Source of the DNA: an uncultured Anaerolineae bacterium
GTDB taxonomy: Bacteria; Chloroflexota; Anaerolineae; Anaerolineales; Villigracilaceae
DNA: 64,000 nt
Direction: 5' to 3'
Assembly (NCBI GenBank): GCA_903838415.1
Contig: CAILYI010000279.1
Coordinates: 11,270-75,269 of the forward strand
The notes under the pieces: generated by a model
What the model was told of the DNA's origin: nothing
The model's database searches: none
The model's input: the letters and a program-made list of their open reading frames with translations, nothing else
Translations under genes and position numbers: made by a program
Shown: positions 3,864 to 60,304 of the stretch, in pieces
Position numbering within the stretch: the stretch's first letter is position 1
How the letters are laid out: each line of letters opens with the position of its first letter

Positions 3864-4017
3864 TTGCTAGGATAAACGTCGAAGCGACGTAAATCCGCAG
3901 GGACGGTTCGCCCGTGAGGGCCAACCGATGCATGCAAGAATTTGACGGAGTCATCAGAACGTTCCCTTTTTCCGTGGCGTCCCACTGGGACGGGCACGAA
4001 CATTATTAGGAGTTTTG

Positions 4018-42062: not shown

Positions 42063-42088
42063 CGTCCATTCCCCAACGCAAACCGAAA

Positions 42089-42634
42089 TCAGGCCTCCCC
42101 CAGCGCCAATTTATGCAACACATTGACCGTGTTCCAATTTCTGGTAGTGGCGGCGACCTTCAATTTTCTTTCGAAAAAATTGTTGGATAACTTCGTCTGA
42201 CCATAGCCGTTCGGGCAAAAAAGGAAGATTTCATTGTCGCCCACTAAAAACTCATCGCTGCTGTTTTCCGAGACAGCCAACACCCTCAGCGCCGACTCGG
42301 GTGGGGCGCTGTATAAAAAAGTGACGTGCAGTTTGGCCGGGTCCGTGTTTCTTTTCAAGAAGGGATTGCTGGCGATCACCCGCTCAAAATCCCTCGCGTC
42401 GCGTAGAAAAACCGCCACGGAAAAGCCAAAAGCCCGCTCGATGCCCGCTTCGATTGATTCGGCCAGCTTGACTGGGTTCTCCTCCGGGCTGTCGAAAACC
42501 ACATTGCCACTCTGCACATACGTCCTGACATTGACCGGTCCCAGCGACTCATACAAGCCCTTTAACTCACCCATCAGCATCCGTTTTTGCCCGCTGACAT
42601 TGATTCCGCGCAGCATTGAAATAAAAGTATCCAT
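42089..42634 (-). CDS. DUF1697 family protein
   Basis: 'MLRGINVSGQKRMLMGELK...VRTYVQSGNVVF' is the characteristic DUF1697 N-terminus. Confidence 0.8.
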   Translation of the reverse strand: MDTFISMLRGINVSGQKRMLMGELKGLYESLGPVNVRTYVQSGNVVFDSPEENPVKLAESIEAGIERAFGFSVAVFLRDARDFERVIASNPFLKRNTDPAKLHVTFLYSAPPESALRVLAVSENSSDEFLVGDNEIFLFCPNGYGQTKLSNNFFERKLKVAATTRNWNTVNVLHKLALGEA

Positions 42635-42726
42635 GCAAGCTCACCAAACGATCCCTTTCTCGAAACAGCGTTCACGGCCCGGTGTTCATCCGCATGTCTG
42701 ACCAGGCTGGTTGTGACCGGTTTATT

Positions 42727-43569
42727 TTATTTTTCCGCCTTTGCGACGATGGCAAACTCATTCTCATCAGCCTTGAATTCATCGCCCGCAACATTCGCCA
42801 GATACTGCTCAATTTGCAAGCCGCTTTCGGCGAATTCTTTGGTCAGGCTGTCTTTGTCATAATGCTGCAACCAGTTATAGATTTTCCGGGTGCGATTTCT
42901 TTCGATGATTGTATATTTGTCCAAAGTTACTTTAGCATCAGCGTATTTGAACGTGTTTTGAAACACGAAATTTTTTTCTGGAGACCAAAAATTATTTTCA
43001 GGGTTGGCGGTGTACGTGGCGCTTTCTTCTCTTTGATTGAAAGCATTGAACGAATGCACATCCAACAGGATGGACCCCTCAGGTTTCAGGCAAATCTTGA
43101 ACTTTTCCAATAATGCTTTTCTTTGTCCCGGGCTTAAAGCGCAAAAATCACAGAAGATCATCACGATCAAATCGTATTGGTTTACCGAATTGAACTCCAA
43201 GTAATTTTGATTGACATATTGGATGTTTAGTTTTTCATCCCTGGCCCTGTTCCTGGCATATTCAATGGAATTCCTTGAGAAATCAATCCCCGTAATGCTT
43301 GCATTGGCTTTTGCGAGTCGTTCCGTGTATAACCCCGGCCCACATCCAAAATCAATAACGGACTTGCCTTCACGAATCTCAAATTGAGAGATTATCCAAT
43401 CAACGGATTTGTTGATGAAAGAAAAATTTCTGCTTGATGCATCAATCTCGCCATTCAGATGATAGGAAAGCATTTGCCTTGAAATATATTCATCCACCCA
43501 TAACTCGTGCGCTGTATAAAACTCAAAAGGCTTGGGGCGAGAATTGATTTCTTCGAGTTGAACAAACAT
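42727..43569 (-). CDS. Class I SAM-dependent methyltransferase
   Basis: Motif I 'VIDFGCGPGLYT', motif II-like 'YDLIVMIF' and post-I 'GIDFS'. Confidence 0.85.
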   Translation of the reverse strand: MFVQLEEINSRPKPFEFYTAHELWVDEYISRQMLSYHLNGEIDASSRNFSFINKSVDWIISQFEIREGKSVIDFGCGPGLYTERLAKANASITGIDFSRNSIEYARNRARDEKLNIQYVNQNYLEFNSVNQYDLIVMIFCDFCALSPGQRKALLEKFKICLKPEGSILLDVHSFNAFNQREESATYTANPENNFWSPEKNFVFQNTFKYADAKVTLDKYTIIERNRTRKIYNWLQHYDKDSLTKEFAESGLQIEQYLANVAGDEFKADENEFAIVAKAEK

Positions 43570-43704
43570 TTACACATTCCTTAAGCGCCATGTCCAACGG
43601 CTGGGAGTGGCGCGTTTGTGGATAGCGCATATTCCATGTTTTACCGTTACAGTTGAAAAGTAATTAGCAGCGCTCGCATGATACGGATTTATTTCTCATC
43701 GAAA

Positions 43705-44295
43705 TTACCGATCATCCAATCCCTTTCCATTGAGAATTTGCGGTAACCATTTTTCAACCCTTGCCTCGCGGGTTTTGGATTGTTTGGGCGCAGAAAAATG
43801 AAGAATGTATGCTCTTTGCCGTCCCGGCGTCAGGGCATCAAAAGCGTCTTGTAGGCCGGGAACTTGCTCCAACCTGGAGATAAATTCTTCAGGAACGGTG
43901 AATTCTGTCGCCTTTTTAAAATCCACTTTTAAACCGGCTTTTTCCACTTCAATGGCTTCATCAAGATAGGCTTTCAAGATGGATTCCATTTCAACTATTT
44001 CTTTGAGATTGGTGAACCGAATCTGGCGACCTGCCTGCACGTTCTCCGTTTGTTGGATCAGGATGCCCTCGGCATCTTGTAACAAGGCACCCTTGATAAA
44101 CAGAATCGCACAGTATTCTTTAAATCCATGAATTAAGACGACGTTGCTTTTCTCGAACATGTAACAAGGAACGCCCCACTTTAATTCTTCAGTTAGCGGG
44201 CGGTCAAGAATGATCATTCTCAATTTCTTGAATTCTTCCTGCCACTTTTCGGCTTTATTAAAATACCAATCAACCTTGGGGTTTGTGCTATTCAT
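43705..44295 (-). CDS. YdeI/DUF1801-family protein
   Basis: 'KVDWYFNKAEKWQEEFKKLRMIIL...ELKWGVPCY' and C-terminal 'TPGRQRAYILHFSAPKQSKTREARVEK'. Confidence 0.75.
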   Translation of the reverse strand: MNSTNPKVDWYFNKAEKWQEEFKKLRMIILDRPLTEELKWGVPCYMFEKSNVVLIHGFKEYCAILFIKGALLQDAEGILIQQTENVQAGRQIRFTNLKEIVEMESILKAYLDEAIEVEKAGLKVDFKKATEFTVPEEFISRLEQVPGLQDAFDALTPGRQRAYILHFSAPKQSKTREARVEKWLPQILNGKGLDDR

Positions 44296-44390
44296 TTGTT
44301 GCTACTCCTTTATGTGGTGTCCGGGGAATATTTTCTCCATGCCACCAGCGATAAATTCCTGGCGAATGCCGCCAGACGCTTTCTTGGCCG

Positions 44391-45125
44391 CTATGCCTTA
44401 ATCCGATACCAGTATTGATACTGCTCCTGAAAACCAATTTTTGCATAAAGATGGAGCGCAGGCGCATTATCAAGCATTACTTGTAAATAAGCCTGCCTGG
44501 CCTGGTTTTGTTTGCCCCAAGCTAGGATGCGCTTTACGATTTGTTGTCCGTAACCGCGACCACGGAAATCCTGAGCGGTGACAATATCAAACAAACCAAT
44601 ATAACCAGATTGTAGCACTCCCAGCCCGCAGGCAACAACTTTGCTATCGGATTTGAGAGATACAAAACAGTGGCGAGGAACAATGTTGAGTAGGATTTCT
44701 CGCAAGGTTTTGCCATTTCGTTCAGAAACCGCGCTCATGGCACAAAAACTTTTCAGCCATTCAGCGGATAAATTTTCTTGCAGCGCTGTTTCTGACAGTG
44801 CGCGCAAATCCACGCTTTCCAAATCTACGGTTTGGACGCTGGTCTGGGAGTTTTTTTGATAACCGCTTTGCTGCAGCCTGTCATCCAGATCGCCTGGATG
44901 ACAGGCTGGGGTCATTTTGAAGACTACCGGTAGATTCTTCTGTTGATAAAGACTTTCGCAGAAACGAAGGTTCTCATCAATGTTTACGTTTGAAGGATAT
45001 AGCGGATTGATGGAATTCGCCCGTTTGGTGTATCCATTGGCGAAACGGATAATCCAGCCATCATAGACTACTGTTTGCAGCGCTGCCCACGCATTCAAGG
45101 AGAGTTCTTCAATCGTGGGGATCAT
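44391..45125 (-). CDS. GNAT family N-acetyltransferase (two-lobed, ~244 aa)
   Basis: N-terminal 'LNAWAALQTVVYDGWIIRFANGYTKRANS' and the acetyl-CoA motif 'FRGRGYGQQIVKRIL'. Confidence 0.8.
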   Translation of the reverse strand: MIPTIEELSLNAWAALQTVVYDGWIIRFANGYTKRANSINPLYPSNVNIDENLRFCESLYQQKNLPVVFKMTPACHPGDLDDRLQQSGYQKNSQTSVQTVDLESVDLRALSETALQENLSAEWLKSFCAMSAVSERNGKTLREILLNIVPRHCFVSLKSDSKVVACGLGVLQSGYIGLFDIVTAQDFRGRGYGQQIVKRILAWGKQNQARQAYLQVMLDNAPALHLYAKIGFQEQYQYWYRIKA

Positions 45126-45273
45126 TTTGCTCCGAGAAGGGAAATAGTTTGTGGCGGATGGGGATTCTTTTTCGAGCCGGGAAAACTCGTAGCGCGGAAA
45201 ATGTTTGACTTCCCCTGGGGCGTGGCGACGAATCCCACATGTTTATTGCGCGATTTGTTCGCCCGCTTTTGGA

Positions 45274-45894
45274 TCACAAGATGCTTTTCTCTGTTGCAGG
45301 ACGATACGGTTCTTCTTTGACCAAATGCCCGTACAAAATCTTAATCATCAGAGCTGGAGCAAACCATTCAAATCCTTGAACAGGAGAAATAACATAGATG
45401 TTCAATAATAACGCTAAGGATATGGCCAGGAATGCTACGGGTCTTTTGAGATATAGCGGAGTACTTATGATGATTATCGTGCCTGCCAGTAGAAAGGCGT
45501 ACCAAAAAATTCCATAAAAATAACCTGGTGCCCCGAAAAGGATTGCAATTAGTAAAGTGTGAACGTGCAAAGCAGAAAAGGCGAAATGATTTTTGAAGAA
45601 AGCAGTGTATTGTGGCTCATCAGGTTTTACCGCTGTATGATAGAACCGCTTGCAAGAATTGAGACTATTGGCAACGATGCCGCCAATAACGTCGAAGGCA
45701 AGAAATCCCGCCAAAATATATTGCCACCAAGCCCAATTTAGCGCATGTGTCAGATACAAATATCCATAAAGGCTTGCGCCTACCAAACTTGCAACCCAAC
45801 CCAAAACCTGTTCTGCATTCGTTGCGCCAGTACCCAGTAAAAAATCTGCTTCTCCGCTGTAATTCCAATTAATATTGACCTTGTCGTCGGGCAT
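45274..45894 (-). CDS. Hypothetical polytopic membrane protein (~206 aa)
   Basis: GGAGA lies 5 nt before the ATG at 45894. About 6 hydrophobic helices. The longer TTG-initiated ORF reaching 46011 adds an implausible Cys/Pro-rich leader. Confidence 0.6.
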   Translation of the reverse strand: MPDDKVNINWNYSGEADFLLGTGATNAEQVLGWVASLVGASLYGYLYLTHALNWAWWQYILAGFLAFDVIGGIVANSLNSCKRFYHTAVKPDEPQYTAFFKNHFAFSALHVHTLLIAILFGAPGYFYGIFWYAFLLAGTIIIISTPLYLKRPVAFLAISLALLLNIYVISPVQGFEWFAPALMIKILYGHLVKEEPYRPATEKSIL

Positions 45895-46007
45895 GAGTTT
45901 CTCCGTAAGAAAGGTTAGCGCGTAATAAATATTACAGCTTGTCCGCTGTACTGCAGTCCATGTTGCAGGGGCAGGGCATAAGGATGAGGATGGCAGACAG
46001 GCAATTC

Positions 46008-47024
46008 TCAAGCATTTGCTTCGGCGACCGCCTCTTCAACGATGGTACTCATTGTCTGGAGGTAACGCGCATATGTAAATTCCTTCACGGTTTCCTGCGC
46101 AAGTTGTTCCATTTTATTTACTGCATCCCGGTTAGCGGAGTCATATACCCATTCAATACCTTCAACAAATCCCTGTTGCGTGCCGTCTGTAATAATTCCA
46201 TTAATGTAATTTTGGATATAGTCTGTTACACCAAGCACGTCTTTCCCATTTACTATGCTGATTTTTCCCATCCGCATAGCGTTAAGGTAAGTTTGTTGAC
46301 CTGACGACTTTGTTCTTCCGGAAACAAGAGGTGTTATTACCATGTCAGCTTCACGCATCAGCCGAATAAATTCAGGGTGTGAAACCTGGACTACCTTGAC
46401 ATTCGCAGGAATATCTTTATGCCCATTCAGCACACGTGTAGCGATAATAAACTGCCGGTGTGGGAGTTGGCGGGCGGTCTCCAGCAGTAAATCATAATCT
46501 CTCGAGGGATTTCCTCCCGCAAAGATATACCCTTTGGTGGCCATTGCCCCAGCATTGATTTCATCATCAGTAAACGTATAGTTATAAATACATACCTTTA
46601 CTTTTTCAGGTGCAATGCCCCATAGTTGAGCGAAAATCTTTTCTTCCCCCAGGGAATGGACTGCATAACGCTGAATGGATCGATCTGCCAGCTGGATCAG
46701 TGTTTTTTGAAAGAGATATTTTAAGGTTCCCCCTTTATGCCACATATCATCTGCCATTACAACAGCAGGGCGCTTCGGAAAAAAACGCATAAAAATACAA
46801 GCCAGTAAATCCGGATGGATTTTCCCGCTGACACTATCCAAGACCATTACGTCACAATGGCGTGCCCATTTCAACAGTGTCCACAATCGCCTGATTGAAC
46901 CGAAAAGTTCTCCCTTAAGACCACCTGCAGAAGCAAATTGCGAAAAAGCGAGATACGGTACCAATCCGGAGCGCAAGGGAGGTAAATCAAGATCTACTGT
47001 AACAATATATTTGGGATGTTCCAT
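46008..47024 (-). CDS. Glycosyltransferase (GT-B fold, GT4-like)
   Basis: C-terminal Rossmann segment 'FAGGNPSRDYDLLLETA...ADMVITPL...QQTYLNAMRMGKISIV...NGIIT'. Confidence 0.78.
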   Translation of the reverse strand: MEHPKYIVTVDLDLPPLRSGLVPYLAFSQFASAGGLKGELFGSIRRLWTLLKWARHCDVMVLDSVSGKIHPDLLACIFMRFFPKRPAVVMADDMWHKGGTLKYLFQKTLIQLADRSIQRYAVHSLGEEKIFAQLWGIAPEKVKVCIYNYTFTDDEINAGAMATKGYIFAGGNPSRDYDLLLETARQLPHRQFIIATRVLNGHKDIPANVKVVQVSHPEFIRLMREADMVITPLVSGRTKSSGQQTYLNAMRMGKISIVNGKDVLGVTDYIQNYINGIITDGTQQGFVEGIEWVYDSANRDAVNKMEQLAQETVKEFTYARYLQTMSTIVEEAVAEANA

Positions 47025-47119
47025 TCTTATTCCTTCTATTCACTCGCATAAAAATGAATTCCTGCCATTTAGCTGCCAACGGATTGCCGTCAGCAGCGTG
47101 GCGGCGTTTGCGCCTTTGT

Positions 47120-48157
47120 TTACGGGGGTGGGATTGTCACGTTATTACTCACGGTTGCTCGCGGGACATTCACGAGCGGGGCGGGCACATCGATAAATCT
47201 GTTATCTCTGATAACCACATCCGTGAGGGAGACGGGTGTTTCCACATATACATTTATTCCCTGGCATTTTTCAATCATACCCCGCTCAATCAAAATATTT
47301 TTTAGTGGCAATTGCGCTTTTGATGTTTCCATTCCAAATCCAACCCCCTTCTGCCCTCCGCCTGTGCGGTAAAAGTTTGGATTGATACAACCCGCATAAT
47401 AACCTGAGAGGGTTATATTCTTCGATCCGTCAATGTAAACGTTTCTGCTCCAATTGTCATGAGTGTTTATATTGATCATGGTTACGTTGGATGAGTTCAG
47501 AACGCCCAACCCTTCGCCGCAATTATTATAAATGTGCATATTCGTAAGGGTTACATTGGAGGCCCAATCAATGGAAAGTCCCCGCCCCCATGTCTCCGCA
47601 TCAATGCACTTCTCGCCTGCACGATTCTGCCAGACTCCATCATGCACGGTTACATTATCCATAGCCAGGTTGTTCACTTTTGCGGATACCTTGGTTCGGG
47701 CAGTAAAGGCATAACCGCCACTAACATCCAGGTTTCTAATTTGAATGTTGCTTGCGTCAATGAGAAGGGCTTCATTGACTGATGTTTGCGGCGCGGCGAT
47801 ACTTCCTCCGTCAATAACAATTCCTGTCTTGGTGATTGTCACCTTGTCGGGATATATACCGGCAAAGTGGATTACATCACCTGTAATAAATATGTCTTGC
47901 GCCCGTTCATAAGTCTTGCACGGTGCAGAAAGACTGCAATTTGCGGCATCATTGCCTGTTGCATTGTTAACATACAGGCCGTTTAAGGGTTGAAGTTCTT
48001 CTACCGCTAGAGTACCAGTAACTGATGTTTGCACTTTGTTTGGGCCCAATGTTGGGATTGCCTCATTTGAAGGAGCTCCACAAGCCTGAGTTACAAAAAG
48101 TAAGATAGCCAGTGCAAAAGCAGGGTTCCATTTTTGTGAATAGTGCTTGATTTTCAA
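47120..48157 (-). CDS. Right-handed parallel beta-helix repeat lipoprotein (pectate-lyase-fold)
   Basis: 'LLFVTQAC' lipobox and 'NATGNDAANCSLSAPCKT' (DUF1565-like). Repeated 'N.T...(I/V).N' rungs. Confidence 0.78.
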   Translation of the reverse strand: MKIKHYSQKWNPAFALAILLFVTQACGAPSNEAIPTLGPNKVQTSVTGTLAVEELQPLNGLYVNNATGNDAANCSLSAPCKTYERAQDIFITGDVIHFAGIYPDKVTITKTGIVIDGGSIAAPQTSVNEALLIDASNIQIRNLDVSGGYAFTARTKVSAKVNNLAMDNVTVHDGVWQNRAGEKCIDAETWGRGLSIDWASNVTLTNMHIYNNCGEGLGVLNSSNVTMININTHDNWSRNVYIDGSKNITLSGYYAGCINPNFYRTGGGQKGVGFGMETSKAQLPLKNILIERGMIEKCQGINVYVETPVSLTDVVIRDNRFIDVPAPLVNVPRATVSNNVTIPPP

Positions 48158-48210
48158 GGTGAATTCCCTTATGTCTTTAGATTTTCGAAACAGTTCTCAT
48201 TTGAAGCGGG

Positions 48211-48837
48211 CTAACGGATTAAGAATTGATTCGGCAGGATGGGCAACTGGGGAGAGTCTATCACTCTCTCTCTATAGGGCGCTTTGATTATACTTTCTAC
48301 CACCCCGATTAACTCTCTGTCGGACATCTTTTTGACCTTGTCATTGCTGAAAGGAGCATGTATCAAGACTTCCAGTTCTGTATCAGGATCCATATACAGT
48401 CTGTTCGCAGGTTTCAGTTTATAGAATCCGTTGAGGGTAATAGGCAATAAATCCAGGGTGCTGTGCCTTAGGATGTACACAAATCCATGCTTGAATGGGT
48501 GGATTTGCCCATCGGGCGAACGCTGTCCCTCAGGAAAAATAATAACGTTTCCCAATGGATCACCTTCAAGGGCTTTATCCTGTGCCTGTTTGGTTTTTTG
48601 GGGGTCTTTCTTGTCCACAAACACGACCCCATTTTGTTTCTGGAAATGTCCCAGCACCGGTATGCGCGATATGAATGCCGCAGCCACAATGGCAGCTTCT
48701 GGAAACAAGCCCATCAGGATAAAAGAGCTATAGAAACACGGGTAATTGGAGATGATCAGGTAGCGCTTGTGTTGCTCTATTTGCCGGAGACCGGAAACGG
48801 AGAATTTTTTGCCGACAATTCGAAACAGAATCGTCAT
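48211..48837 (-). CDS. Lysophospholipid acyltransferase (PlsC/LPLAT)-like protein with a degenerate HX4D motif
   Basis: Block III 'IFPEGQRSPDG' is present. The block I position reads 'ISNYPCFYSS' instead of NHxSxxD. An upstream TM-encoding ORF (48728-48976) lies in another frame. Confidence 0.6.
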   Translation of the reverse strand: MTILFRIVGKKFSVSGLRQIEQHKRYLIISNYPCFYSSFILMGLFPEAAIVAAAFISRIPVLGHFQKQNGVVFVDKKDPQKTKQAQDKALEGDPLGNVIIFPEGQRSPDGQIHPFKHGFVYILRHSTLDLLPITLNGFYKLKPANRLYMDPDTELEVLIHAPFSNDKVKKMSDRELIGVVESIIKAPYRERVIDSPQLPILPNQFLIR

Positions 48838-49020
48838 GAAATATGGTTTTAATTGCCAGACGGATGCAGGTTAATACCCCAAGTACAAGCCCAATTGGAA
48901 GAGCGAAAAAAACTAAAAGGTGCGATACCACATACATTGACACGGTCGAGAGAACAATCCGTAAAAAGCGTTTCATCTCTTGTTCTTCAGCATGCCTTTT
49001 TACTCGACGCGCAGTCCAGC

Positions 49021-49049
49021 GGCAGGCGGCCTGCCCCGCACGCTCTTTG
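49021..49049. repeat. Direct repeat copy A flanking the toxin-antitoxin pair
   Basis: GGCAGGCGGCCTGCCCCGCACGcTCTTTG. 28 of 29 positions are identical to the copy at 49803-49831. Confidence 0.85.
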
Positions 49050-49083
49050 CGGGGATACCGGCAAGCACGGGATTTGGCCAGTT

Positions 49084-49467
49084 TTAAGGTTGCGAAGAAA
49101 CTATATTGTCGAGAGAAACTTGCAGAACTTGGGCAATGGCTGATAAAACATCAAGTGAGCCTTTGCGCTTACTGGTTTCCAACTGTGACAAATATGGAAC
49201 GCTAATCCCCGCTTTTTTGGCGGTCTCTGGCTGTGACATGCCGCGATACTCACGCCAGACTTTTATTGGGTTTTCGCCATCGAGAATGGCATAAATTACT
49301 TTGCTAGGAACTAATTCATCATCGCCGCGTTCTAAAGCCGCCTTTGCGCTGTCATAATCTTGGACGTCTTGCAACATTTCGGCTTTTTCGACGAGTTCCA
49401 AATAGATTTTATAAGGAATGACTGCCCATTCTGGCTGATCACCTTGTTTGATTACCTGTACGCTCAT
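49084..49467 (-). CDS. Type II antitoxin with a C-terminal Xre-type HTH domain
   Basis: 'IKVWREYRGMSQPETAKKAGISVPYLSQLETSKR' is an HTH_XRE segment. The gene overlaps the toxin gene by 4 nt. Confidence 0.8.
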   Translation of the reverse strand: MSVQVIKQGDQPEWAVIPYKIYLELVEKAEMLQDVQDYDSAKAALERGDDELVPSKVIYAILDGENPIKVWREYRGMSQPETAKKAGISVPYLSQLETSKRKGSLDVLSAIAQVLQVSLDNIVSSQP

Positions 49468-49721
49468 TTGTACACCTCGGCCCTGGGGGCAATTTTCATA
49501 ACAATAATTATCACCTGGTCTTTGTGGATTTCATAAATCACCCGCCAATCGCCAACCCACAACCGATAACCTGACCTACCTTGCAGTTTTTTGGCGTTTG
49601 AGATTGATGCAAATGGGTCAACGGCGACTTGCTCCATCTTTTCCCGAATCAACTGGGCAGTATTTCGGGGCATTTTGAGCAGGGTTTTCGCGGCTTGGGT
49701 GGTGTAGGTGATTTTGTACAC
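49464..49721 (-). CDS. Type II toxin, RelE/ParE family
   Basis: 85 aa. 'GYRLWVGDWRVIYEIHKDQVIIIVMKIAPRAEVY' is a typical RelE/ParE C-terminus. Confidence 0.82.
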   Translation of the reverse strand: MYKITYTTQAAKTLLKMPRNTAQLIREKMEQVAVDPFASISNAKKLQGRSGYRLWVGDWRVIYEIHKDQVIIIVMKIAPRAEVYK

Positions 49722-49802
49722 GCCCCTATATTAGCATAATGCTAATGATATTTCAATAGTTATTTGCTTATTGTGCCAAGGACGGGCGCAACGGCAGGCG
49801 GC

Positions 49803-49831
49803 CTGCCCCGCACGTTCTTTGGCGGATAAAA
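49803..49831. repeat. Direct repeat copy B flanking the toxin-antitoxin pair
   Basis: GGCAGGCGGCCTGCCCCGCACGtTCTTTG. Confidence 0.85.
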
Positions 49832-49940
49832 TCACCAGATGCCGAATTCGCCGCACGCCCCGTTGACGAAAAAACAGAACCACCGTTCAACCCAATTTTA
49901 CGGAACCATTGCGGCTGCTTTGATAATTTGACCGGAGCTG

Positions 49941-50318
49941 TTGTTTCGTGGCCCGGAATCGTTATTTCGGGGCGATGTTTCCTTGTTTCACGGGCATGAA
50001 TCTTTATTGCGGGCCAATGGTCCCTTGTTACGGAGTTCCGTTCCTTTGCTACGGGACTTCGTTCCTTTGTTACGGATACCCGTTTCCGACTGGCTCCGCC
50101 GAATTTCCCGATTTCCGCCGTGCTGTGGTTGACTTGCGCTGCAATGTTACTGACTTGCGGTGCAATGTTATTGACTTACGTCACGATGTTATTGACTTGT
50201 GCTGCGATGTTATTGACTTACGCCGTGATGTTCCTTTGTTACGGGGGCATGTTCCTTTGCTACGGAGTTCCGTTCCTTTCCTACGGAGCTACGTTCCTTG
50301 TTACGGAGTTATGTTCGC
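49941..50318. repeat. Array of ~18 tandem 21-bp units in two sequence families
   Basis: Manual phasing gives units starting at 49941, 49962, 49983 and so on to 50298. A-type units resemble TTGTTACGGAGTTCCGTTCCT. B-type units resemble TGACTTACGTCACGATGTTAT. Confidence 0.9.
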
Positions 50319-50433
50319 AAGATGATTGACGCAGAACTACCTTTTGGACGAGTTCAAGCCCGTTTTCTTCTCTCGATGTGGCTCTGCTAACCGGCTGGTT
50401 TTTGAGAAACGATGTGTTGGGTTGCTACTTGAA

Positions 50434-51500
50434 TTAACCAGTAGTTGCCATTATTTCATCAATATCATTATCCAAAAAACCTATCAATTTACCAACCTGC
50501 TTTACAAACATCTTTTCGGTAATGTGGAAAGTGCCATCGCGTTTTGCAAGCGTCACCATATCTACTAACAAACCAATCGCGTCATCAGGCGAGCTGGCAA
50601 ATGCTGAGTAATCTACGACAAACTTTCCGCTTTTATCTATTGCCTGCATCAGGTCTGCTCTTTCACTTTCCGTTAAATCCGCATTTCTTATTATGGTTTG
50701 GACATACTCGCGTTCTTCCGCTTTGATTGTGCCATCAACTTTCATTAGATTTACAAGCGTTTGCACCTTTGGCATATCAGGGCTAATGCTTTGAGTAGAC
50801 GCACGGCTAATGGTAGCGGTTGGGACAGATACGGATTCAGTTTCCAGCGGCATTTCTTCAATGACTTCTTCCGAAAGCACAATCTCTTTTTCAAAAATCT
50901 CAATGGCTTTTTTGCCAACTTGTCGCGTCAAGTAGTTTGACCAAACTGCCATCGCCGCCGCACCAACACCGGGAAGCCATTTGCTGATAGCCGATTTTAG
51001 GGCTTGTTGTGTAACCTTTCCTGCTAACATCGCGATAATTTGCTGAAATGCCCGTAAGGCAACACGCTTTACTAAAACTTTGCTACCCTGCATAACCAGC
51101 AATGAGCCTGCGCTTGACCCCATCGCAGTTATAAGAACACCGGCTAATAGTTCTTTGTTCAGAACTTTGCTTTTTCCATATGCCATGCCTACATCGTAAA
51201 TCAGCGCCAACTGATTACGAATGACAGCGGCATTTCGGGGATAACGGCAACCATGCCCCAAGGACCTGGCACAAGCCCTGCGCCGCCCGAAATAGCGGCA
51301 TTGGTGATGGAATACGAATTGATAATAGACGGAACAGATTTTTTGTCAGGGATTTCGTCAGGGTGTTTGGCAAAATGACCACTACGGTCAGAAACCACTA
51401 ACTCAAATACCCCCGTCATTTTTTCGGTAAGTTTGTTTTGTAGAGCGTTCTCAACTTCCTTGCTTTCACCATTGGTTTTTGCGTCATCTTGTTTTGTCAT
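50434..51500 (-). pseudogene. Frameshifted gene: N-terminal glycine-rich membrane-associated domain (EcsC/DUF697-like) plus C-terminal TerB-like domain
   Basis: Two overlapping ORFs (51201-51611 and 50434-51261) read as one protein if one base is restored near 51230-51240. The junction would read '...GPWGMVAVIPE | AAVIRNQLALIYDVGMAYGK...'. The C-terminal 'MKVDGTIKAEEREYVQTII' is TerB-like. Confidence 0.6.
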
Positions 51501-51833
51501 TCTATGTACTCCAATTTTAGTATGATAGTGCGGAATCAAGCGGCCCACTGAATTAAGGATTGATACGGCAGGATGGACAGAAGTCAGAAGAAGGACTCTG
51601 TGCGCCGCCAAAGGTAAGGCATTTTGCGGGGCATGGTTGGGCAGGAGGCCCGCCGTGGGTGCAATTTTGGTCAGGAAAAACTAAAAATTTAGGGGCAAAA
51701 TCACACAGCGTTTTACCAATAGAATTCCCGCGCTATGGGCGGCCTGTTGAGTCAGGCCGCCGGAGTTGATAAGAATAGTATAGCGAGTTTTTGGTTGGGT
51801 TGCAATCCTTTTTCGCAAATTTGGGCGGAATTT

Positions 51834-52421
51834 TCAGGGTTGATCCTGCCGCATCCAGCGTTTGACGGCTTCGGTGGGGTGCTGGTGCTGGTTCATGCGG
51901 GCCAGTAGTTCCTGCGGGGTTTCGGCCAGGCTGATCATTTCGCGGTGTTCGGGGTAGAGAAAGCCTTCTTTTTCGGCGTGCAGCACCATCGCCATGAGTG
52001 GGTCAAAGTAGCGGAGCACGTTCAACAGGCCGATCGGTTTTTCGTGTTCGCCAATCTGCGCCCAGGTGATGGTTTCGAATAACTCGTCGAAGGTGCCGAA
52101 GCCGCCGGGCAGGGCAATGTAGCCTTCGGCCAGTTCGTACATGCGCGCTTTGCGCTCGTGGATGGTGGGCAGCACCTCCAAAACCGTCAGCCCGAGGTGG
52201 GCCAGGGCCGGGGTGTTCATCGAGGTCACCAGCACGCCGGTCACTTCTCCGCCAGCCTCCAGTGTCCCATCGGCCACGGCGCCCATCACGCCAGTCTTGC
52301 CGCCACCGTAGATTAAACGGATACCGTTTTCTGCCAGGGTGCGCCCCATTTGACGGCCAGCCAGTTTATAGTCCGGGTGGATTTTTTCCGAAGCGCCACA
52401 GTAGATGCAAATTGATTTCAT
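51834..52421 (-). CDS. LOG-family (TIGR00730) nucleotide 5'-monophosphate nucleosidase
   Basis: Contains 'IYGGGKTGVMGAVA' and 'ALPGGFGTFDELFE'. Confidence 0.9.
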   Translation of the reverse strand: MKSICIYCGASEKIHPDYKLAGRQMGRTLAENGIRLIYGGGKTGVMGAVADGTLEAGGEVTGVLVTSMNTPALAHLGLTVLEVLPTIHERKARMYELAEGYIALPGGFGTFDELFETITWAQIGEHEKPIGLLNVLRYFDPLMAMVLHAEKEGFLYPEHREMISLAETPQELLARMNQHQHPTEAVKRWMRQDQP

Positions 52422-54782: not shown

Positions 54783-55424
54783 TTACGAGTACCGTTCCTC
54801 TTTCCACACATCCGCCCGGTTGTGATAACCGGCCTGCTCCCAGAAACCGCGCCGGTCGGCGGGCATGAATTCCAGGCTGCGCAGCCATTTGGCGCCTTTC
54901 CAAAGATAGGGCGTCTCCATGTCGGCTTTCGCCGGGAGATGTCCCACCACGCCGCGCAGGGGATAACCGTGGTCAAGGTCAAGCGGCTGGCCATCGAAGT
55001 GCGTCGCCAGCAGGAAATTCTCCTGTAAAACGACTTCGAGCGGTAAATTGACGGTAAAGCCATGTTCGGCGTGCTGCATCACATATTTGGCAGTCGGCTT
55101 GAGCTTGAACAGGCCCGCATCCAGCAGCGTTTTGACCGAGACACCTTCCCAGAGCGTGTCGAACTTGCTCCATTTGGTCACGCAATGGATATCCATGACC
55201 AGTTTGGTGCGCGGCAGCTGGTTAAACTCATCCCAGCTCCAGCGTTTTTCCTGCTCAACTTCGCCCCAGATGCGCAAATCCCAGGTGGCGGCGTTGAACG
55301 CTGGCACCGGTCCATAATGCAGCACGGGGAATTTCAGGGTCAGTGACTGACCAGGGGGCAGGCGTCCGGCACTGCGGACGCGTTCTTCTTCCTTCCGGCG
55401 GTCGGGACCTTCAAACATAAACAT
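54783..55424 (-). CDS. Small sulfite-oxidase-family molybdopterin oxidoreductase (YuiH-like)
   Basis: 'DIHCVTKWSK' gives the Mo-ligand Cys context. 'GYPLRGVVGHL' and 'YLWKGAKWL' are also present. Confidence 0.82.
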   Translation of the reverse strand: MFMFEGPDRRKEEERVRSAGRLPPGQSLTLKFPVLHYGPVPAFNAATWDLRIWGEVEQEKRWSWDEFNQLPRTKLVMDIHCVTKWSKFDTLWEGVSVKTLLDAGLFKLKPTAKYVMQHAEHGFTVNLPLEVVLQENFLLATHFDGQPLDLDHGYPLRGVVGHLPAKADMETPYLWKGAKWLRSLEFMPADRRGFWEQAGYHNRADVWKEERYS

Positions 55425-55537
55425 AGTGGACTCCTCCTGTCGGATTTGATTATATCAATTTTGGCGTTTAAATCCTTACAGCAGGATTAGTCCTGTGTAA
55501 GAATTTTATTTACGTAGCAAGGGCGAGCCCCTATCGA

Positions 55538-57262
55538 TTAAAATCCCAATTCCTTCAACAGGTCTCCTTCGCTGTGATTACCCTTGTTTCCGAGCAAATC
55601 GCGCCAGAACTGGTCATCATAACGGCGCGAGCGCACCGGCAGCGGCATGGGCACGCCCCAGCCCAGCAGCAGCACTTCCTCCTTGGGCTGCAGCCGCGCC
55701 AGCATCCCGCGGATGGCTTCGCGCCCCGAAAGACCCGAAAGCGCGGCCTGGATGTCATCGTCATCGCCCAGCCAGCCGCTGATGCGCGTGCCGAGTTGCG
55801 ACATGACCTCGTCATAAATTTGCGAGGGGCGCTGATCCACGATCAACAGCGTCACGTAATATTTGCGCAGTTCGCGCGCGATGGTGGCAAAGGTGGTCTG
55901 AGCGGCCATTTCGCGGTTGAGCAGTTTGTGGGCTTCCTCCACCACGATCACCAGCGGGCGCGGTTCGCGCGTGCCATGTCCGCGGAATTCGTTGGTGCGC
56001 TTTTCCCAGGCGTCGCGGATGTGGCGCGTCAGCAGGTTGGAGACCAGCAGGTCATCCAGGTCGCTTTCAAAATCGCCAAACGACAACACCACATGCTGCC
56101 CGGCTTCCAGCGCCTTGATGATCTCGGCGATGCTGTCGGTGGCGGGCTTTTCGACGATGTAGGGCTTGCCGAACAGGCGGCGCAGTTTGTCGTGCAGGGC
56201 CTCGGCGGCCATCACGTTCACGCCACTCCCATCCGCCCAGGCCGCCACACTCTCGGGATGCGGCACTTTCTTGATTTTGCCCGTCTTCTCGTCTTCCACT
56301 TCCATTTCTTCGCGGTTCATGGCCTTGAAACGCGCGAACCAGTCGCTTTTGAACGAGGTGTACAGCGCGTTGAGCGTGGTGGGCGTGGTGTCCTTCAGGT
56401 TCAGCTCGCGCGCCAGCATTTCCACGTCCGCCGCGGAGATATCGCGCATGGCAATTTCGAGATTGAAATCGGGCACCTGGCTGTGGCGGATTCTGGCTCC
56501 CGCGCCCAATCCAACCACGCGCACTTTACTCTGGAATTTGGTCTTTAATCCGATTACGGGCATTTTCGTGTCTGACGCCACGTCGTCGAAGCCGTACTCG
56601 TTGTGCATATCCAGCACCAGCACCGAGGCCTTGTTGTAATGCATCAACCCGGCCAGTACCAGCCGCGTCAGGAAGGATTTGCCTGTGCCGGTAGCGCCAA
56701 ACACACCCGAGGAGCGCTGCACAAACCGATCCAGGTTGATGCAGACGGGATGTCCCTGCTCGCGGGTGTAGCCGATGACGAAGTTGCCTTCCTTTTCCGG
56801 GTCGCCGAAAATGGCGGCGATATCGGTCTGGTCGGCCAGGGAGACGGGGGCGTGGTGCAGCGGCACGGTCTTGACCGGGATGGGGCGCGGGTCTTCGGGG
56901 TGAGCGGCCCGCCAGAGTTTGTAGTCGGGAGTGCCCGGTTCGGGGCCGCGTTCCAGCATCAGCGCGGGCAGGATTTCCAGGTTGGTGTAGAGTGTCTGCC
57001 CGTGCAGGGCTTTGGCCAGGGCGGGTGGCAGGCGCGTCTCGGATTGTTCATCCGCGAAGCGCGGGTCGGTCGCTCCCAGCTTCAGGTCGGTGACCAGGCC
57101 GTAGAAACGGTAGTCGCCGCTGTCGATGACGACAAAGCCGCCCTCCTGCACGTCGAGCGGATCCACCGTCAGGCGCGCCGAGAACGACTCTTTCAATCCA
57201 CCGCCGACGATGTAGCCGATTTTGGATTGCTGATTTTCGATTTTTGATTGTTGATTGGCCAT
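55538..57262 (-). CDS. herA: HerA/DUF87-family (FtsK-HerA superfamily) ATPase
   Basis: N-terminal HAS-barrel-like 'IGYIVGGGL...GGFVVIDSGDYRFYGLVTDLKL'. Walker A 'GATGTGKS', Walker B 'LVIVVEEAHKLL' and 'TLLIVDQRPSQI'. Confidence 0.85.
   Translation of the reverse strand: MANQQSKIENQQSKIGYIVGGGLKESFSARLTVDPLDVQEGGFVVIDSGDYRFYGLVTDLKLGATDPRFADEQSETRLPPALAKALHGQTLYTNLEILPALMLERGPEPGTPDYKLWRAAHPEDPRPIPVKTVPLHHAPVSLADQTDIAAIFGDPEKEGNFVIGYTREQGHPVCINLDRFVQRSSGVFGATGTGKSFLTRLVLAGLMHYNKASVLVLDMHNEYGFDDVASDTKMPVIGLKTKFQSKVRVVGLGAGARIRHSQVPDFNLEIAMRDISAADVEMLARELNLKDTTPTTLNALYTSFKSDWFARFKAMNREEMEVEDEKTGKIKKVPHPESVAAWADGSGVNVMAAEALHDKLRRLFGKPYIVEKPATDSIAEIIKALEAGQHVVLSFGDFESDLDDLLVSNLLTRHIRDAWEKRTNEFRGHGTREPRPLVIVVEEAHKLLNREMAAQTTFATIARELRKYYVTLLIVDQRPSQIYDEVMSQLGTRISGWLGDDDDIQAALSGLSGREAIRGMLARLQPKEEVLLLGWGVPMPLPVRSRRYDDQFWRDLLGNKGNHSEGDLLKELGF
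57218..57259. repeat. Six tandem heptanucleotides (GATTNNN on the + strand) covering codons 2-15 of herA
   Basis: GATTTTG GATTGCT GATTTTC GATTTTT GATTGTT GATTGGC. On the coding strand this encodes 'NQQSKIENQQSKIG'. Confidence 0.85.
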
Positions 57263-57272
57263 CTTGTCCTCG

Positions 57273-57629
57273 TTATTTCATATTGGCGCGCGCCGTTTTG
57301 ATGGACGCCGTAAAAATGGCGACCAACTCATCGGCTTCTTTGAGTAAATCTTTCAGTTTTTCCGCCGGGAAAATCCCTGCTTCTTGCAGCAATTCCATCC
57401 AATAAAGACATTCGTCAGCTTCTTCGAGCGAGATGCCCGCTTTGGCGACAAAATCGGCTTTTGATTTTCCCCGACAGGCAGCGCGATAATTTGCGCCTAC
57501 CGATATGCCAGCCCGCAAAAGTTGATGCCCGATGGTTTTGGCAGTGGTTGTGTTTGGCAAAGCTTCAACCAGCCGGATGACCCGCAAGCTGAACTGTTTG
57601 GTCCGCAGTTTTAATTCTTCCTCGTTCAT
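57273..57629 (-). CDS. Four-helix-bundle protein (23S rRNA intervening-sequence / Avd-like family)
   Basis: The pattern 'FSLRVIRLVEALP...IGHQLLRAGISVGANYRAA.RGKSKADF..K..I.LEEADE..YW..L' is characteristic of the TIGR02436/PF05635 family. Confidence 0.85.
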   Translation of the reverse strand: MNEEELKLRTKQFSLRVIRLVEALPNTTTAKTIGHQLLRAGISVGANYRAACRGKSKADFVAKAGISLEEADECLYWMELLQEAGIFPAEKLKDLLKEADELVAIFTASIKTARANMK

Positions 57630-57652
57630 CGCAGACTCCCGTGCTATCCCAC

Positions 57653-57687
57653 AATCGAAAATCGGAAATCAAAAATCTCCAATCAGA
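57653..57687. repeat. Five tandem heptanucleotides (AATCNNN on the + strand), inverted relative to 57218-57259
   Basis: AATCGAA AATCGGA AATCAAA AATCTCC AATCAGA. The array overlaps the stop codon of the 196-aa gene. Confidence 0.85.
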
Positions 57688-58273
57688 GCACTTCTCCAAG
57701 CGCGCCTAAAACGCTCATCAGCGTGGGATAGTCATCCCGCAGCAGGGTGATCAACTCTTGCGTGGCTTTTTCCTTCCATTGGGGGTTTTGCGCGGCCCCC
57801 GCTTGCTGGATGTGCGCCGCCAGGATTTCGCCAATCGGTATATCCTGGGCGCGGAGGATGTGACGGAAGTAGCCGAAGCGACCGGCGGTGGTGAAGCGTT
57901 TCAGGTCGGCGTTATCGCACAGGTAGATCACATCCAAACTCAGCGGCGGACGTGGCGGCAGGAGATGGAAGATTTTGCCGTCAAGTTCGTAGCCGACCGC
58001 GAGCACTGACATTTCCACCGGCACGATGCGGCGTTCACGGTTGTCCTTCATCACTTCGTTGGTGACGTTGTCGGCGGTGACCAACTGGCGTACCAGCCCG
58101 TCATCGTCGATGTGGATGTCGTAGATCAGGCCGTAGACCTGGTAGTCGTTGCCCAGCGGGGCGCGGACCAGCGCGCCAAAGGCCGGGGTTTCAAATTGCG
58201 AAACGGAGCACCCGGCGATGAAGCCGGTTGTCCCGGCGCGCAGCAAACGTCCAATTTCAATTGATGACATCAT
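57683..58273 (-). CDS. Hypothetical 196-aa protein whose N-terminus is a HAS-barrel paralog of the HerA N-terminus
   Basis: 'IGRLLRAGTTGFIAG...GALVRAPLGNDYQVYGLIYDIHI' aligns with HerA 'IGYIVGGGLKESFSA...GGFVVIDSGDYRFYGLVTDLKL'. No ATPase motifs. Confidence 0.7.
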   Translation of the reverse strand: MMSSIEIGRLLRAGTTGFIAGCSVSQFETPAFGALVRAPLGNDYQVYGLIYDIHIDDDGLVRQLVTADNVTNEVMKDNRERRIVPVEMSVLAVGYELDGKIFHLLPPRPPLSLDVIYLCDNADLKRFTTAGRFGYFRHILRAQDIPIGEILAAHIQQAGAAQNPQWKEKATQELITLLRDDYPTLMSVLGALGEVL

Positions 58274-58282
58274 GCCTCCACT

Positions 58283-59479
58283 TTAATAGCGGGTTTTCCC
58301 CGGCAGCTCTTTGGCGGATTGTTTATGGGAGCCGTCGTCGGTTTCGGCCCCGGCGCGGCGCAGTTCCAGCTCGAGCAATTGCGCGATTTGATTTTGTTCT
58401 TCGAACGAAACGACGGCCGTTTCGTGGGCGCGATGCAGCAAATATGGATACGGTTTGGCGCCCATGATGCGGCATTGATGGATCAGAATGGCGTGCAGCA
58501 TGTCCAGCTTTTCAGCATCGTCAGCCACCCATTGGGGGATTTCAACGCGCACCGGCCAGGGATGACCTTTGGTGCCGACGTTGAGATAGAAGAAGTGCAG
58601 GCTGAGCACGCCGCTGTAGCGTTTTTCGTTTTTGGCCTGGATTTTGAAAACAGCCGAGCGTTCTCCGGGTTGGAGCAGCGGATTGGTTTTATCCCCAAAC
58701 AGCCAGCGGTCGCTGACGCCGCGCAGGGGATGATATTCGCGCAGTTTTTTCAGGTCGTCATCGCTGGCGATGGCAAGTTCGAGCAGGCGGATGACCAGGT
58801 CGGCGGCGGGTTTGTCGACGTAACCGGCGGTGAGGATGCCGCGTGTTTGCAGGCGCGAGAGCACTGCCAGGTAGCGGGTGAGACCGGCTTCGTAGGCGCT
58901 GGCGTCTTCGCCGCTGGCGGAGCCCCATAGTTCGATCGGCCCATCGGTGAAGGTGATGATCGGGGCGCTGTCGCCATCCATTTGGGCGGCCAGGTCGTAG
59001 AGTTTGGTGCGCTCCTGTAAGTCGCGCTGCAGGGCGACCATGCCATCCGAGATGAGGCCGGAGGCGGTGTAGAGTTCTTCGTCAAATAACAACTGACTGT
59101 CGGTGAAGATTTGCGGGGTGGCGCCGCTGTTCAGGCGTAAAACAATCGCGCCGACGTTGATCAGGCCGAATTGCAGCGCGGCGTGCCGGTCGGGGTTGAT
59201 CTGTGAGCCGTCAGCGGCGATTAAAACCGCGTTTAACGGCGGGTCGGGCGGCGGGGCGTGAAAGTCGAGCCGCTCCTTAAATGGGGCGGCGCAGCGGATG
59301 GCGGGATCGGCCGCTTTGACGGTTTCCAGTTTCCAGCGCAATTCTTCCAAATTATCGGCATGCAGATTGAGCAAGGCGCGCGCCTGCTCACGGCGTTCGT
59401 CCAGCGTCTTTTTGCGCTGTTGGGCGTTGGCGCCAATTTCGCGGATTTTCTGGTAGACCTGCTGAAAGTCAATCGCCAT
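58283..59479 (-). CDS. nurA: NurA-domain nuclease-like protein
   Basis: 'VLIAADGSQINPDRH' gives the catalytic Asp context. 'PIITFTDGPIELWG' and 'TAGYVDKPAADLV' are also present. The stop lies 9 nt before the next gene. Confidence 0.75.
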   Translation of the reverse strand: MAIDFQQVYQKIREIGANAQQRKKTLDERREQARALLNLHADNLEELRWKLETVKAADPAIRCAAPFKERLDFHAPPPDPPLNAVLIAADGSQINPDRHAALQFGLINVGAIVLRLNSGATPQIFTDSQLLFDEELYTASGLISDGMVALQRDLQERTKLYDLAAQMDGDSAPIITFTDGPIELWGSASGEDASAYEAGLTRYLAVLSRLQTRGILTAGYVDKPAADLVIRLLELAIASDDDLKKLREYHPLRGVSDRWLFGDKTNPLLQPGERSAVFKIQAKNEKRYSGVLSLHFFYLNVGTKGHPWPVRVEIPQWVADDAEKLDMLHAILIHQCRIMGAKPYPYLLHRAHETAVVSFEEQNQIAQLLELELRRAGAETDDGSHKQSAKELPGKTRY

Positions 59480-59596
59480 GCGGAACTCCGTTAGGATAGA
59501 ACATTTGTTATAATTCTACTCGATTTGAACATTTTCGGGAACTTTTGCCGGATTTGCGCGTCTTGATAAAGTAAACTCATCTTCATAGGAGAAAAA

Positions 59597-60304
59597 ATGA
59601 AAACCAAAACTTTTGTATTTTCAGTTGTTGCGCTGTTTGCGGTGCTGTTGAGCGCCTGTGCGGCTCCGGCGGCTACTACGCGGACTTTGACGGTCAGTGG
59701 TGCGGGCTTGGTTTCGCTCAAGCCGGATATGGCGTATGTGTATGTGGGCGTGCATACCGAGAAGCCCAGCGCGGCGGAAGCGGTGGCGGTGAATAATGCC
59801 AGCACCCAGCAGTTGATCGATGCTTTGACGGCGGCGGGCGTGGCGGTGAACGATATCCAGACCACGAATTTCAGCATCTGGCAGAATAACCAGTATGGGC
59901 CGGATAACCAGCCGACGGGCACCAATTACGCGGTCGATAACACCGTCTATGTGACGGTGCGCAAGTTGGAAACCCTGGGCAGCCTGCTCGATGCGGCCGT
60001 CAAGGCGGGCGCGAACAATATCAACAGCATCCAGTTTGACGTGGCCGATAAGACCGCCGCGCTCAGCCAGGCGCGCGCCGAGGCCGTCAAAACCGCCAAA
60101 ACCCAGGCCGGTGAATTGGCTGCCGCCGCCGGGGTGACGCTGGGCGACGTTCAGAGCATCCAATATTTCGATGCCAGCCCTTCGCCGGTTTTCTTGGGCA
60201 AAGGCATGGGCGGCGGCGAGGCCAGTGTCAACGCGGCCATGCCGATTAATCCCGGCCAGATGCAGATCACGGTAACGGTGACGATGGCGTATGAAATAAA
60301 GTAA
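59597..60304 (+). CDS. SIMPL-domain (DUF541) lipoprotein
   Basis: 'LLSAC' lipobox. 'LTVSGAG.V...PD.A.V.VGV', 'A....N' and 'PINPGQMQITVTVTMAYEI' are typical of SIMPL. Confidence 0.85.
   Translation: MKTKTFVFSVVALFAVLLSACAAPAATTRTLTVSGAGLVSLKPDMAYVYVGVHTEKPSAAEAVAVNNASTQQLIDALTAAGVAVNDIQTTNFSIWQNNQYGPDNQPTGTNYAVDNTVYVTVRKLETLGSLLDAAVKAGANNINSIQFDVADKTAALSQARAEAVKTAKTQAGELAAAAGVTLGDVQSIQYFDASPSPVFLGKGMGGGEASVNAAMPINPGQMQITVTVTMAYEIK

Follow-up and report, generated by a model that had tools for sequence, protein, structure and literature searches.

A stand-alone HAS-barrel gene between nurA and herA: an apparently undescribed three-gene module of Chloroflexota

NurA-HerA is the model helicase-nuclease machine for DNA end resection in archaea and a few bacteria, and all of its solved complexes are, to our knowledge, binary, with NurA docked on the HAS-barrel collar of HerA. 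What, then, might be the role of a third gene standing between the two? This question is raised by a 64,000-nucleotide stretch of DNA from an uncultured Anaerolineae bacterium (contig CAILYI010000279.1; hereafter the window), in which four co-directional genes are encoded on the minus strand: nurA (58283..59479, 398 amino acids (aa)), which is the first gene of the operon; an unannotated open reading frame (ORF) of 196 aa (57683..58273), for which we use the working name mid196; a four-helix-bundle gene (57273..57629, 118 aa); and herA (55538..57262, 574 aa). An earlier note on this DNA had reported the four ORFs, and all of them were found again at the same coordinates, with intergenic gaps, from nurA to herA, of 9, 53 and 10 nucleotides (nt). 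Our analysis indicates that nurA, mid196 and herA constitute a real, widely conserved and apparently undescribed three-gene NurA/HAS-barrel/HerA module, which is restricted to Chloroflexota as far as seen. Thus, in this phylum, the two-part NurA-HerA machine for DNA-end processing probably has a third subunit, which we propose to be the product of mid196.

The mid196 protein has no match in Pfam, NCBIfam or PADLOC, and it lacks a Walker A motif, in keeping with the earlier description of a protein without ATPase motifs. An AlphaFold2 model, built on an alignment of 63 diverse members of the family, has a mean predicted local distance difference test score (pLDDT) of 94.7 and a predicted template modelling score of 0.89. 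The predicted protein is composed of an N-terminal HAS barrel (residues ~1-120) and a C-terminal helical domain (residues 121-195); the barrel has seven strands (residues 5-13, 17-22, 35-39, 44-55, 86-97, 100-102 and 115-118) and a helical insert (residues 59-81). A Foldseek search of the model against the PDB returned 47 matches with E <= 0.001, and all 47 are chains of HerA-family (HerA/TdpA) ATPases, originating from DUF4297-HerA, Sir2-HerA, TdpAB, Thermococcus, Sulfolobus and Deinococcus. The best E-value is 3.4e-6, over about 130-140 aligned columns, and the best matches have a probability of 1.00 and a root-mean-square deviation of 2.0-2.6 Å over ~130 columns. The predicted barrel of mid196 is, in other words, superposable on the N-terminal domain of HerA, and the helical insert occupies the same topological position as a long insert in the HerA barrel.

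The relationship is also detectable in the sequences, when these are compared as families. The earlier note had drawn attention to a parallel between DYQVYGLIYDIHI in mid196 and DYRFYGLVTDLKL in HerA. This parallel is real; it is weak alone (BLASTP, E 0.061), becomes significant by profile, and is confirmed by the predicted structure. In the profile comparison with hhalign, the mid196 family was paired with the window HerA and its orthologues at an E-value of 3.4e-5 and a probability of 72% over 59 columns, N-terminus to N-terminus and in register (mid196 ~3-56 with HerA ~11-63), and an independent run against the N-terminus of the cognate HerA gave an E-value of 6.3e-5. The window mid196 itself has no match to the HAS-barrel family PF09378. 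In a member-by-member Pfam scan, sub-threshold matches to this family (E <= 1) were obtained for 20 of the 63 members, the best at 6.9e-5, and PF09378 was the only family matched by more than one of the 63. Since three independent tests, namely structure, profile comparison and member-wise Pfam scan, agree, we regard mid196, on its sequence and model, as a stand-alone paralogue of the HAS barrel found at the N-terminus of HerA, extended by a small helical domain. It was also considered as an ATPase fragment or a pseudogene, and this was rejected.

Single-sequence and profile searches of PDB sequences with mid196 gave nothing significant, and the viral fold library BFVD contains no match to the model at E <= 0.001. 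The mid196 profile has weak matches to two uracil-DNA glycosylases (UDG), 3CXM (E 0.11) and 4UQM (E 1.9), which cover residues ~99-180 (window 57734-57979), that is, the conserved LPPxPPxSL..IY region, which resembles the proline-rich DNA-backbone loop of UDG. A relationship to UDG was judged to be a chance resemblance, as the predicted fold is that of the HerA family and no UDG is found among the 47 significant structural matches.

Both presumed partners of mid196 are recognizable members of their families. In the herA product, the DUF87 domain PF01935 was matched with 97.3 bits (cutoff 23.2, E 1.9e-27), the HAS barrel PF09378 with 26.8 bits at residues 15-74 (cutoff 25.2, E 5.5e-6), and HerA_C with 22.2 bits (cutoff 22, E 6.5e-5). 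The long insert of its N-terminal region, which is nearly invariant, lies where the Pfam HAS-barrel match breaks off. The protein carries the Walker A sequence GATGTGKS, and none of 40 orthologues departs from it at G189, G192, G194 and K195 of Walker A or at E442 and E443 of Walker B. The herA product is, judged by these signatures, a HerA-family ATPase, for which a hexameric state and translocase activity are predicted. Its best sequence match to a solved structure is a SIR2-associated HerA (only E 5.5e-19), and the Deinococcus radiodurans HerA is not among the nine HerA matches found by phmmer at E <= 0.001 in PDB sequences. Among the NCBIfam models, the window HerA scored 80.3 and 53.6 bits against the archaeal repair HerA models NF040937 and NF040819 (cutoffs 800 and 970), the former being its best NCBIfam match, and 68.8 and 57.6 bits against the antiphage HerA models NF042943 and NF042944 (cutoffs 800 and 850). 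As these scores are far below all four equivalog cutoffs, the window HerA represents a separate HerA clade. A single-sequence AlphaFold2 model of HerA was discarded (pLDDT 35).

The nurA product was matched by PF09376 with 70.2 bits (cutoff 21, E 2.5e-19), over residues 86-357 and profile positions 3-254 of 254. Thus, the HerA and NurA assignments of the earlier note both stand up to profile searches. In 80 NurA orthologues, no variation is seen at D90 (in the ADGSQ motif), D153, E156 or Y346, only D or E occurs at position 179, and H352 is replaced by D in one member; the window protein has all of these acidic and histidine residues, which are putative catalytic ones. No solved NurA was recovered at E <= 0.01 by phmmer of the window NurA against PDB sequences, and in PADLOC only a chance-level match to JetB (E 0.0078) was obtained.

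How widespread is mid196, and does it stay with these two partners? A word-indexed search yielded 6,148 relatives at 90% clustering, all of them designated 'hypothetical protein' or unnamed, and an exhaustive search yielded 456 clusters at 50% identity, almost all of ~190-220 aa. In a scan of one genome per GTDB species, relatives were present in at least 526 genomes. The genome loci discussed below are the best 80 of these at least 526 genomes, taken from the scan with closer alignment, to which a few distant loci were added separately. Nearly all of the best 80 are labelled Anaerolineae, Anaerolineales or Chloroflexota, one being titled generically as 'metagenome'. Because these loci are the closest ones, the limitation to the phylum is founded on the named members of the most distant clusters, which are Thermoflexus hugenholtzii JAD2, Thermoflexus sp. 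and 'Chloroflexota bacterium'; two protein searches toward distant lineages gave 3 and 20 matches, and all named matches were again Thermoflexus or Chloroflexota. With the tail of the family sampled to a limited extent, no member was found outside Chloroflexota, one contig aside. This contig (L056; JBLNAU010000562.1, 4.3 kilobases (kb)) is labelled 'Syntrophothermus sp.' (Firmicutes) and carries nurA-mid196, the products being 57% and 76% identical to those of the window. Most likely, this is a mis-binned Anaerolineae contig and not a family member from another phylum. The link to Deinococcota that the earlier note had suggested did not appear, the nurA and herA genes of Deinococcus and Thermus being two-gene units (PMC9960219, PMC5448004).

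Synteny with both partners, which the earlier note had proposed to examine, is strong. Of 76 loci with enough sequence on that side, 74 have nurA as the gene just upstream of mid196; on the other side, herA follows in 51 of 57 loci whose sequence extends for more than 2.5 kb. The nurA-mid196-herA order is kept even in members whose mid196 is only 30-33% identical to that of the window. In a distant Chloroflexi metagenome-assembled genome, the three genes (1769-2941, 2943-3593 and 3583-5238) abut or overlap; another distant contig carries the trio with overlaps of 4 nt and 11 nt; and in Thermoflexus hugenholtzii JAD2 (CP076326.1, region 2755042-2769680), whose genome is complete, the order is likewise kept, with gaps of 12 and 163 base pairs (bp). 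The abutment or overlap of starts and stops in two of these distant loci is a coupling typical of subunits of one complex. In the window, the 9-nt gap between nurA and mid196 contains a GGAGG Shine-Dalgarno sequence ahead of the mid196 start. Mean identity to the window proteins across the loci is 78% for mid196, 76% for HerA and 56% for NurA, and mid196 is therefore the most constrained of the three proteins.

These observations bear on the view that mid196 is merely left over from an incomplete duplication of herA and has no part in the NurA-HerA machine, being a fragment in decay or else a protein recruited for an unrelated function. Such an origin would agree with the clear paralogy of mid196 to no more than the N-terminal portion of HerA. 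A decaying fragment is, on the other hand, hardly expected to be the best-conserved gene of its operon, to keep a constant length of ~200 aa in a family of 456 clusters and its place between nurA and herA down to ~30% identity, or to fold with very high predicted confidence; in addition, the protein has gained a conserved helical domain and carries the near-invariant motifs DDxLVRQL and LPPxPP. We thus consider a leftover to be very improbable.

One distant homologue occurs in other company. In locus L086 (1-7059), a mid196 relative of 34% identity is paired with herA without nurA, and downstream are a 217-aa ORF without family, a MoxR-type AAA ATPase, a 545-aa ORF without family and a UvrD helicase, which may represent a different partner set for the mid196-HerA pair.

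If mid196 is a subunit, how could it act? In solved complexes, the HAS-barrel face of the HerA hexamer receives the NurA dimer or, in defence systems, the effector; the complex of Deinococcus radiodurans contains HerA and NurA at a molar ratio of 6:2, and each NurA protomer contacts four HAS domains (PMC9960219). As this face is the docking site in solved HerA complexes, mid196 would most likely assemble on or beside the same collar. It may join or stack on the N-terminal collar of HerA through barrel-barrel contacts, and could then be a stoichiometric component, an adaptor or regulator by which the nuclease, NurA, is coupled to the motor, HerA, or gated. The protein is acidic, with an isoelectric point of 5.18 (family median 5.3, with 94% of members below 7), which argues weakly for a protein-binding rather than a DNA-binding role; its helical domain may accordingly be imagined as a second interface, for protein-protein and not DNA contacts. 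The assembled machine would most likely resect or degrade DNA ends for recombinational repair. On balance, we lean towards this reading, namely that the locus encodes a Chloroflexota-specific three-subunit NurA-HerA machine, chromosomal and vertically inherited, in which mid196 is an adaptor or regulator on the HerA collar.

Several observations weigh against it. HerA has a HAS barrel of its own, which leaves the need for a second one unexplained. In three loci, mid196 and herA occur without NurA in the ~430 bp to 5 kb of upstream sequence covered, and in three others nurA and mid196 occur without HerA within 5 kb; the genes being separated in these six loci, the trio is not always adjacent. 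The mid196-herA junction is often split by inserts of 0.3-2.6 kb, which weakens the argument from translational coupling within Anaerolineae. Moreover, both HerA and NurA are too divergent for phmmer to reach the Deinococcus proteins in the PDB, and the repair role is deduced from genomic context only.

The same facts may be read in a different way, with mid196 not as a permanent structural adaptor but as a negative regulator or decoy, which would sequester NurA or cap the HerA ring and so hold nuclease and motor apart until a signal such as DNA damage is received. The protein copies the very domain of HerA that binds NurA in known complexes (PMC9960219), it is encoded right after nurA, across the short gap with its Shine-Dalgarno sequence, and it stays by nurA in the three loci without a nearby herA. 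It stays equally, however, by herA in the three loci without nurA, and a stoichiometric subunit would account no less well for its very high conservation and for the overlap of stop and start codons with the genes on either side. The present data agree with both the adaptor and the decoy role, and we judge the decoy to be rather unlikely. A bolder version of the subunit reading is also conceivable, though we hold it only tentatively and with some doubt: the HAS barrels of mid196 might close into a ring of their own on top of the HerA collar, and the machine would then have three tiers, NurA2-mid6-HerA6. No earlier case would be known of a 'crown' barrel of the HerA/ATP-synthase type as a separately encoded, exchangeable subunit, and the result would be a lineage-specific, Chloroflexota-wide resection apparatus, one that possibly substitutes for partners such as Mre11-Rad50 or RecJ, which load or regulate NurA-HerA elsewhere.

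Is the module devoted to repair or to defence? The genes on the NurA side are kept across species, with SIMPL in 57 of 84 loci, a NAD-binding dehydrogenase in 40 of 84 and YitT in 30 of 84, at 55-95% identity, and the operon therefore occupies a stable chromosomal position. A tblastn search of 72,556 plasmids with mid196, HerA and NurA gave no match, and no relative of mid196 was found in 50,697 phage records or in IMG/VR. The trio is not a catalogued system of PADLOC-DB v2, in which mid196 has no match, NurA only the chance match to JetB, and HerA partial matches to several generic HerA models (best 106.9 bits). A setting in the chromosome that is kept across species, an even guanine-cytosine content around the operon, and the lack of relatives in the plasmid, phage and viral collections searched speak for a housekeeping or repair role and against mobile defence, so that the two roles, which the earlier note had left equally open, are now tilted towards repair. 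Judged from its genes and their setting, the trio would thus be engaged in chromosomal DNA-end processing, which is the function we favour.

By analogy with known systems, the trio could instead provide anti-phage or anti-plasmid defence, with HerA as sensor and motor, NurA as effector nuclease and mid196 as specificity or trigger subunit. Pairs of a HerA ATPase and an effector are established defence modules (PMC11472057, PMC11291478), the structural matches of mid196 are dominated by HerA-effector complexes, and the window HerA reaches the PADLOC HerA models in part, as noted. In addition, one distant locus lies amid toxin-antitoxin and methyltransferase fragments, and selfish cassettes gather at the junction within the operon. 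A stable position beside SIMPL, the dehydrogenase and YitT is nevertheless unlike a defence island, and the three proteins are highly conserved instead of rapidly diversifying. The empty plasmid, phage and IMG/VR searches, the lack of significant PADLOC matches for mid196 and NurA, and the scores of HerA against the antiphage models, so far below their cutoffs while the best NCBIfam match is an archaeal repair model, point in the same direction. A defence function is, in our estimation, improbable.

With repair as the favoured role, the module can be set beside the described NurA-HerA systems. It resembles those of Deinococcus (PDB 7WRW) and Thermus in that the NurA gene is upstream of a HerA-family gene, in one chromosomal operon and a non-mobile context, and in that HerA has an N-terminal HAS barrel, the surface on which the NurA dimer docks. 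The Deinococcus pair was deleted 'as an operon' (PMC9960219), and in Thermus the nurA stop codon overlaps the start of hepA, forming a 'duet' (PMC5448004). Unlike these two-gene units, the window has a HAS-barrel-only gene between nurA and herA; its NurA is longer than that of Thermus (398 versus 293 aa), and its HerA and NurA are too divergent for the Deinococcus proteins to be recovered by phmmer from PDB sequences. Since the third gene is conserved on both sides, next to NurA and next to HerA in the proportions given above, the trio falls outside the two-component operon type of Deinococcus and Thermus.

The archaeal HerA-NurA systems (Sulfolobus, 4D2I; Thermococcus kodakarensis, 9X1L/9X1M, PMC12977600) share with the window the same two enzymes and the HAS-barrel fold, and the mid196 model aligns to archaeal HerA chains at Foldseek ranks 20, 23, 38 and 43. 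Where the window has the barrel paralogue, however, archaeal operons have mre11 and rad50, and the window HerA falls far short of the archaeal repair equivalog. We know of no stand-alone HAS-barrel subunit described for archaeal HerA-NurA. In the anti-phage systems Sir2-HerA/Nezha, DUF4297-HerA and TdpAB, the HAS-barrel face of the HerA hexamer likewise recruits a partner protein, and HerA chains of such systems are the closest structural matches of mid196 (Foldseek ranks 1-19). Their partners, however, are effectors (the Sir2 NADase, the DUF4297 nuclease, TdpB) and not a copy of the barrel, and these defence systems are patchily distributed, whereas the trio is chromosomally anchored. No description of a NurA/HAS-barrel/HerA trio or of the mid196 family was found in the literature searched, and in the absence of any match to a Pfam, NCBIfam or PADLOC system, the trio is, as the earlier note had supposed, apparently not yet catalogued.

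If the third subunit is real, a strongly conserved, free docking-domain protein would change the assumed architecture of NurA-HerA for a whole phylum, whose members, Anaerolineae in particular, are abundant in sediments, sludge and the subsurface. Nature would also have supplied a test case for the way in which HerA rings acquire their partners, with a bearing on Sir2-HerA and DUF4297-HerA defence. The mid196 proteins, so far annotated only as 'hypothetical', define a new family that comprises 456 or more clusters at 50% identity, and Thermoflexus hugenholtzii JAD2 is a cultured carrier of this family with a complete genome.

What remains is the fourth gene. The earlier note had treated the four genes as one tightly spaced group. 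The spacing stands, while the four-helix-bundle gene proves to be an inserted cassette outside the module. Its 118-aa product was matched by TIGR02436 with 91.6 bits (cutoff 24, E 3.5e-26) and by PF05635 with 66.4 bits (cutoff 33.8, E 3e-18). Only 7 of 84 loci, one of the 7 being the window's own genome, have such a gene in the mid196-herA interval, and it is absent from an 80%-identical relative in which mid196 and herA are 43 bp apart; it was therefore rejected as a fourth component and is regarded as a passenger. The cassette is ~470 nt in length (57218-57684), and its PF05635 ORF is bracketed by an imperfect inverted repeat. The upstream arm, in the direction of the operon, is at 57651..57684 and contains GATTTT(C/G)-type units; the downstream arm, at 57218..57251, is within the 5' end of the herA ORF, where it encodes NQQSKIENQQSKI. 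The arms pair over 34 nt at 79% complementarity, with a 25-nt core at 88%, and do so in both the minimum-energy and the centroid RNA folds; the GATTTT(C/G) motif is found six times in this region, where chance would give 0.11. In most HerA orthologues that lack the cassette, the protein begins ~8-15 residues later. A single arm-like sequence, caatctaaaatcgaaaatctaaaatc, is found at the 5' end of herA in two loci without a four-helix-bundle cassette, L002 (6640-6690) and L016 (~6220-6270), where it is translated as NQQSKIEN, and which is either the scar of a lost cassette or a preferred target sequence.

In its make-up, the cassette looks like a 23S rRNA intervening-sequence (IVS) element that has landed in an mRNA operon. 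The IVS of Coxiella burnetii is 428 nt long and carries an S23p ORF (PMC4990558). The window cassette is similar to the 23S rRNA elements in its size, in its PF05635 ORF and in an inverted repeat predicted to form a long stem. It differs from them in being located in the junction of a protein-coding operon and not in 23S rRNA helix 45, and in that the coding sequence of herA has come to include one of the arms.

The junction between mid196 and herA is a recurrent insertion hotspot. Where both genes are present (66 loci), they are 14 bp to 2.6 kb apart, and the inserts comprise 24 GxxExxY ORFs (TIGR04256), 7 four-helix-bundle genes and 3 GIY-YIG-like ORFs (identified by motif only), along with HNH proteins, a metallophosphoesterase, membrane proteins and methyltransferases; the examples were taken from loci L004-L084, such as L006 (5631-6047), L062 (5700-6101) and L010 (5735-6031). 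Most of the small cassettes have strong, family-specific flanking inverted repeats, with duplex z-scores down to -8.5 relative to shuffled controls, and the GxxExxY inserts are flanked by CACAAAGG/CACGAAGG units. Like the window cassette, they are reminiscent of the 23S rRNA IVS elements. Several nurA-mid196 gaps of 0.5-1.2 kb across the loci suggest that this junction is used for insertion, too. A hotspot of IVS-type cassettes inside an operon may help to explain the spread of small 'selfish' genes. The HNH-motif proteins (191-235 aa) lie beside herA in three genomes (L004, 934-1509; L065, 7180-7755; L075, 4706-5413), two of them between mid196 and herA and one just after herA in a genome that has no nurA next to it. 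For these proteins, either an arrival by homing-type insertion or a function as alternative nuclease partner is conceivable.

The surroundings of the operon in the window are unremarkable, as had been stated earlier: the flanking genes are of housekeeping types (DnaJ, an HtrA-like protease, a molybdopterin oxidoreductase, SIMPL, the NAD-binding dehydrogenase and YitT), and the guanine-cytosine (GC) content is flat, at 0.575-0.588, across 52-62 kb. Rfam has no match within 55300-59800, and a promoter and terminator scan was uninformative, its counts being at or below the expectation from shuffling. Farther away, a 10-kb stretch at ~42000-52000 has a GC content of 0.45-0.47, as opposed to ~0.55-0.58 elsewhere. 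It contains a minus-strand run of accessory-type genes, for DUF1697, a SAM (S-adenosylmethionine) methyltransferase, DUF1801/OmdA, a GNAT acetyltransferase, a beta-helix protein, an acyltransferase, a helix-turn-helix regulator and TerB, together with two ORFs without Pfam match, and may be a horizontally acquired island. The GC content peaks at 0.637 in the 38-40 kb bin, coinciding with an 836-aa plus-strand ORF at 37576-40086.

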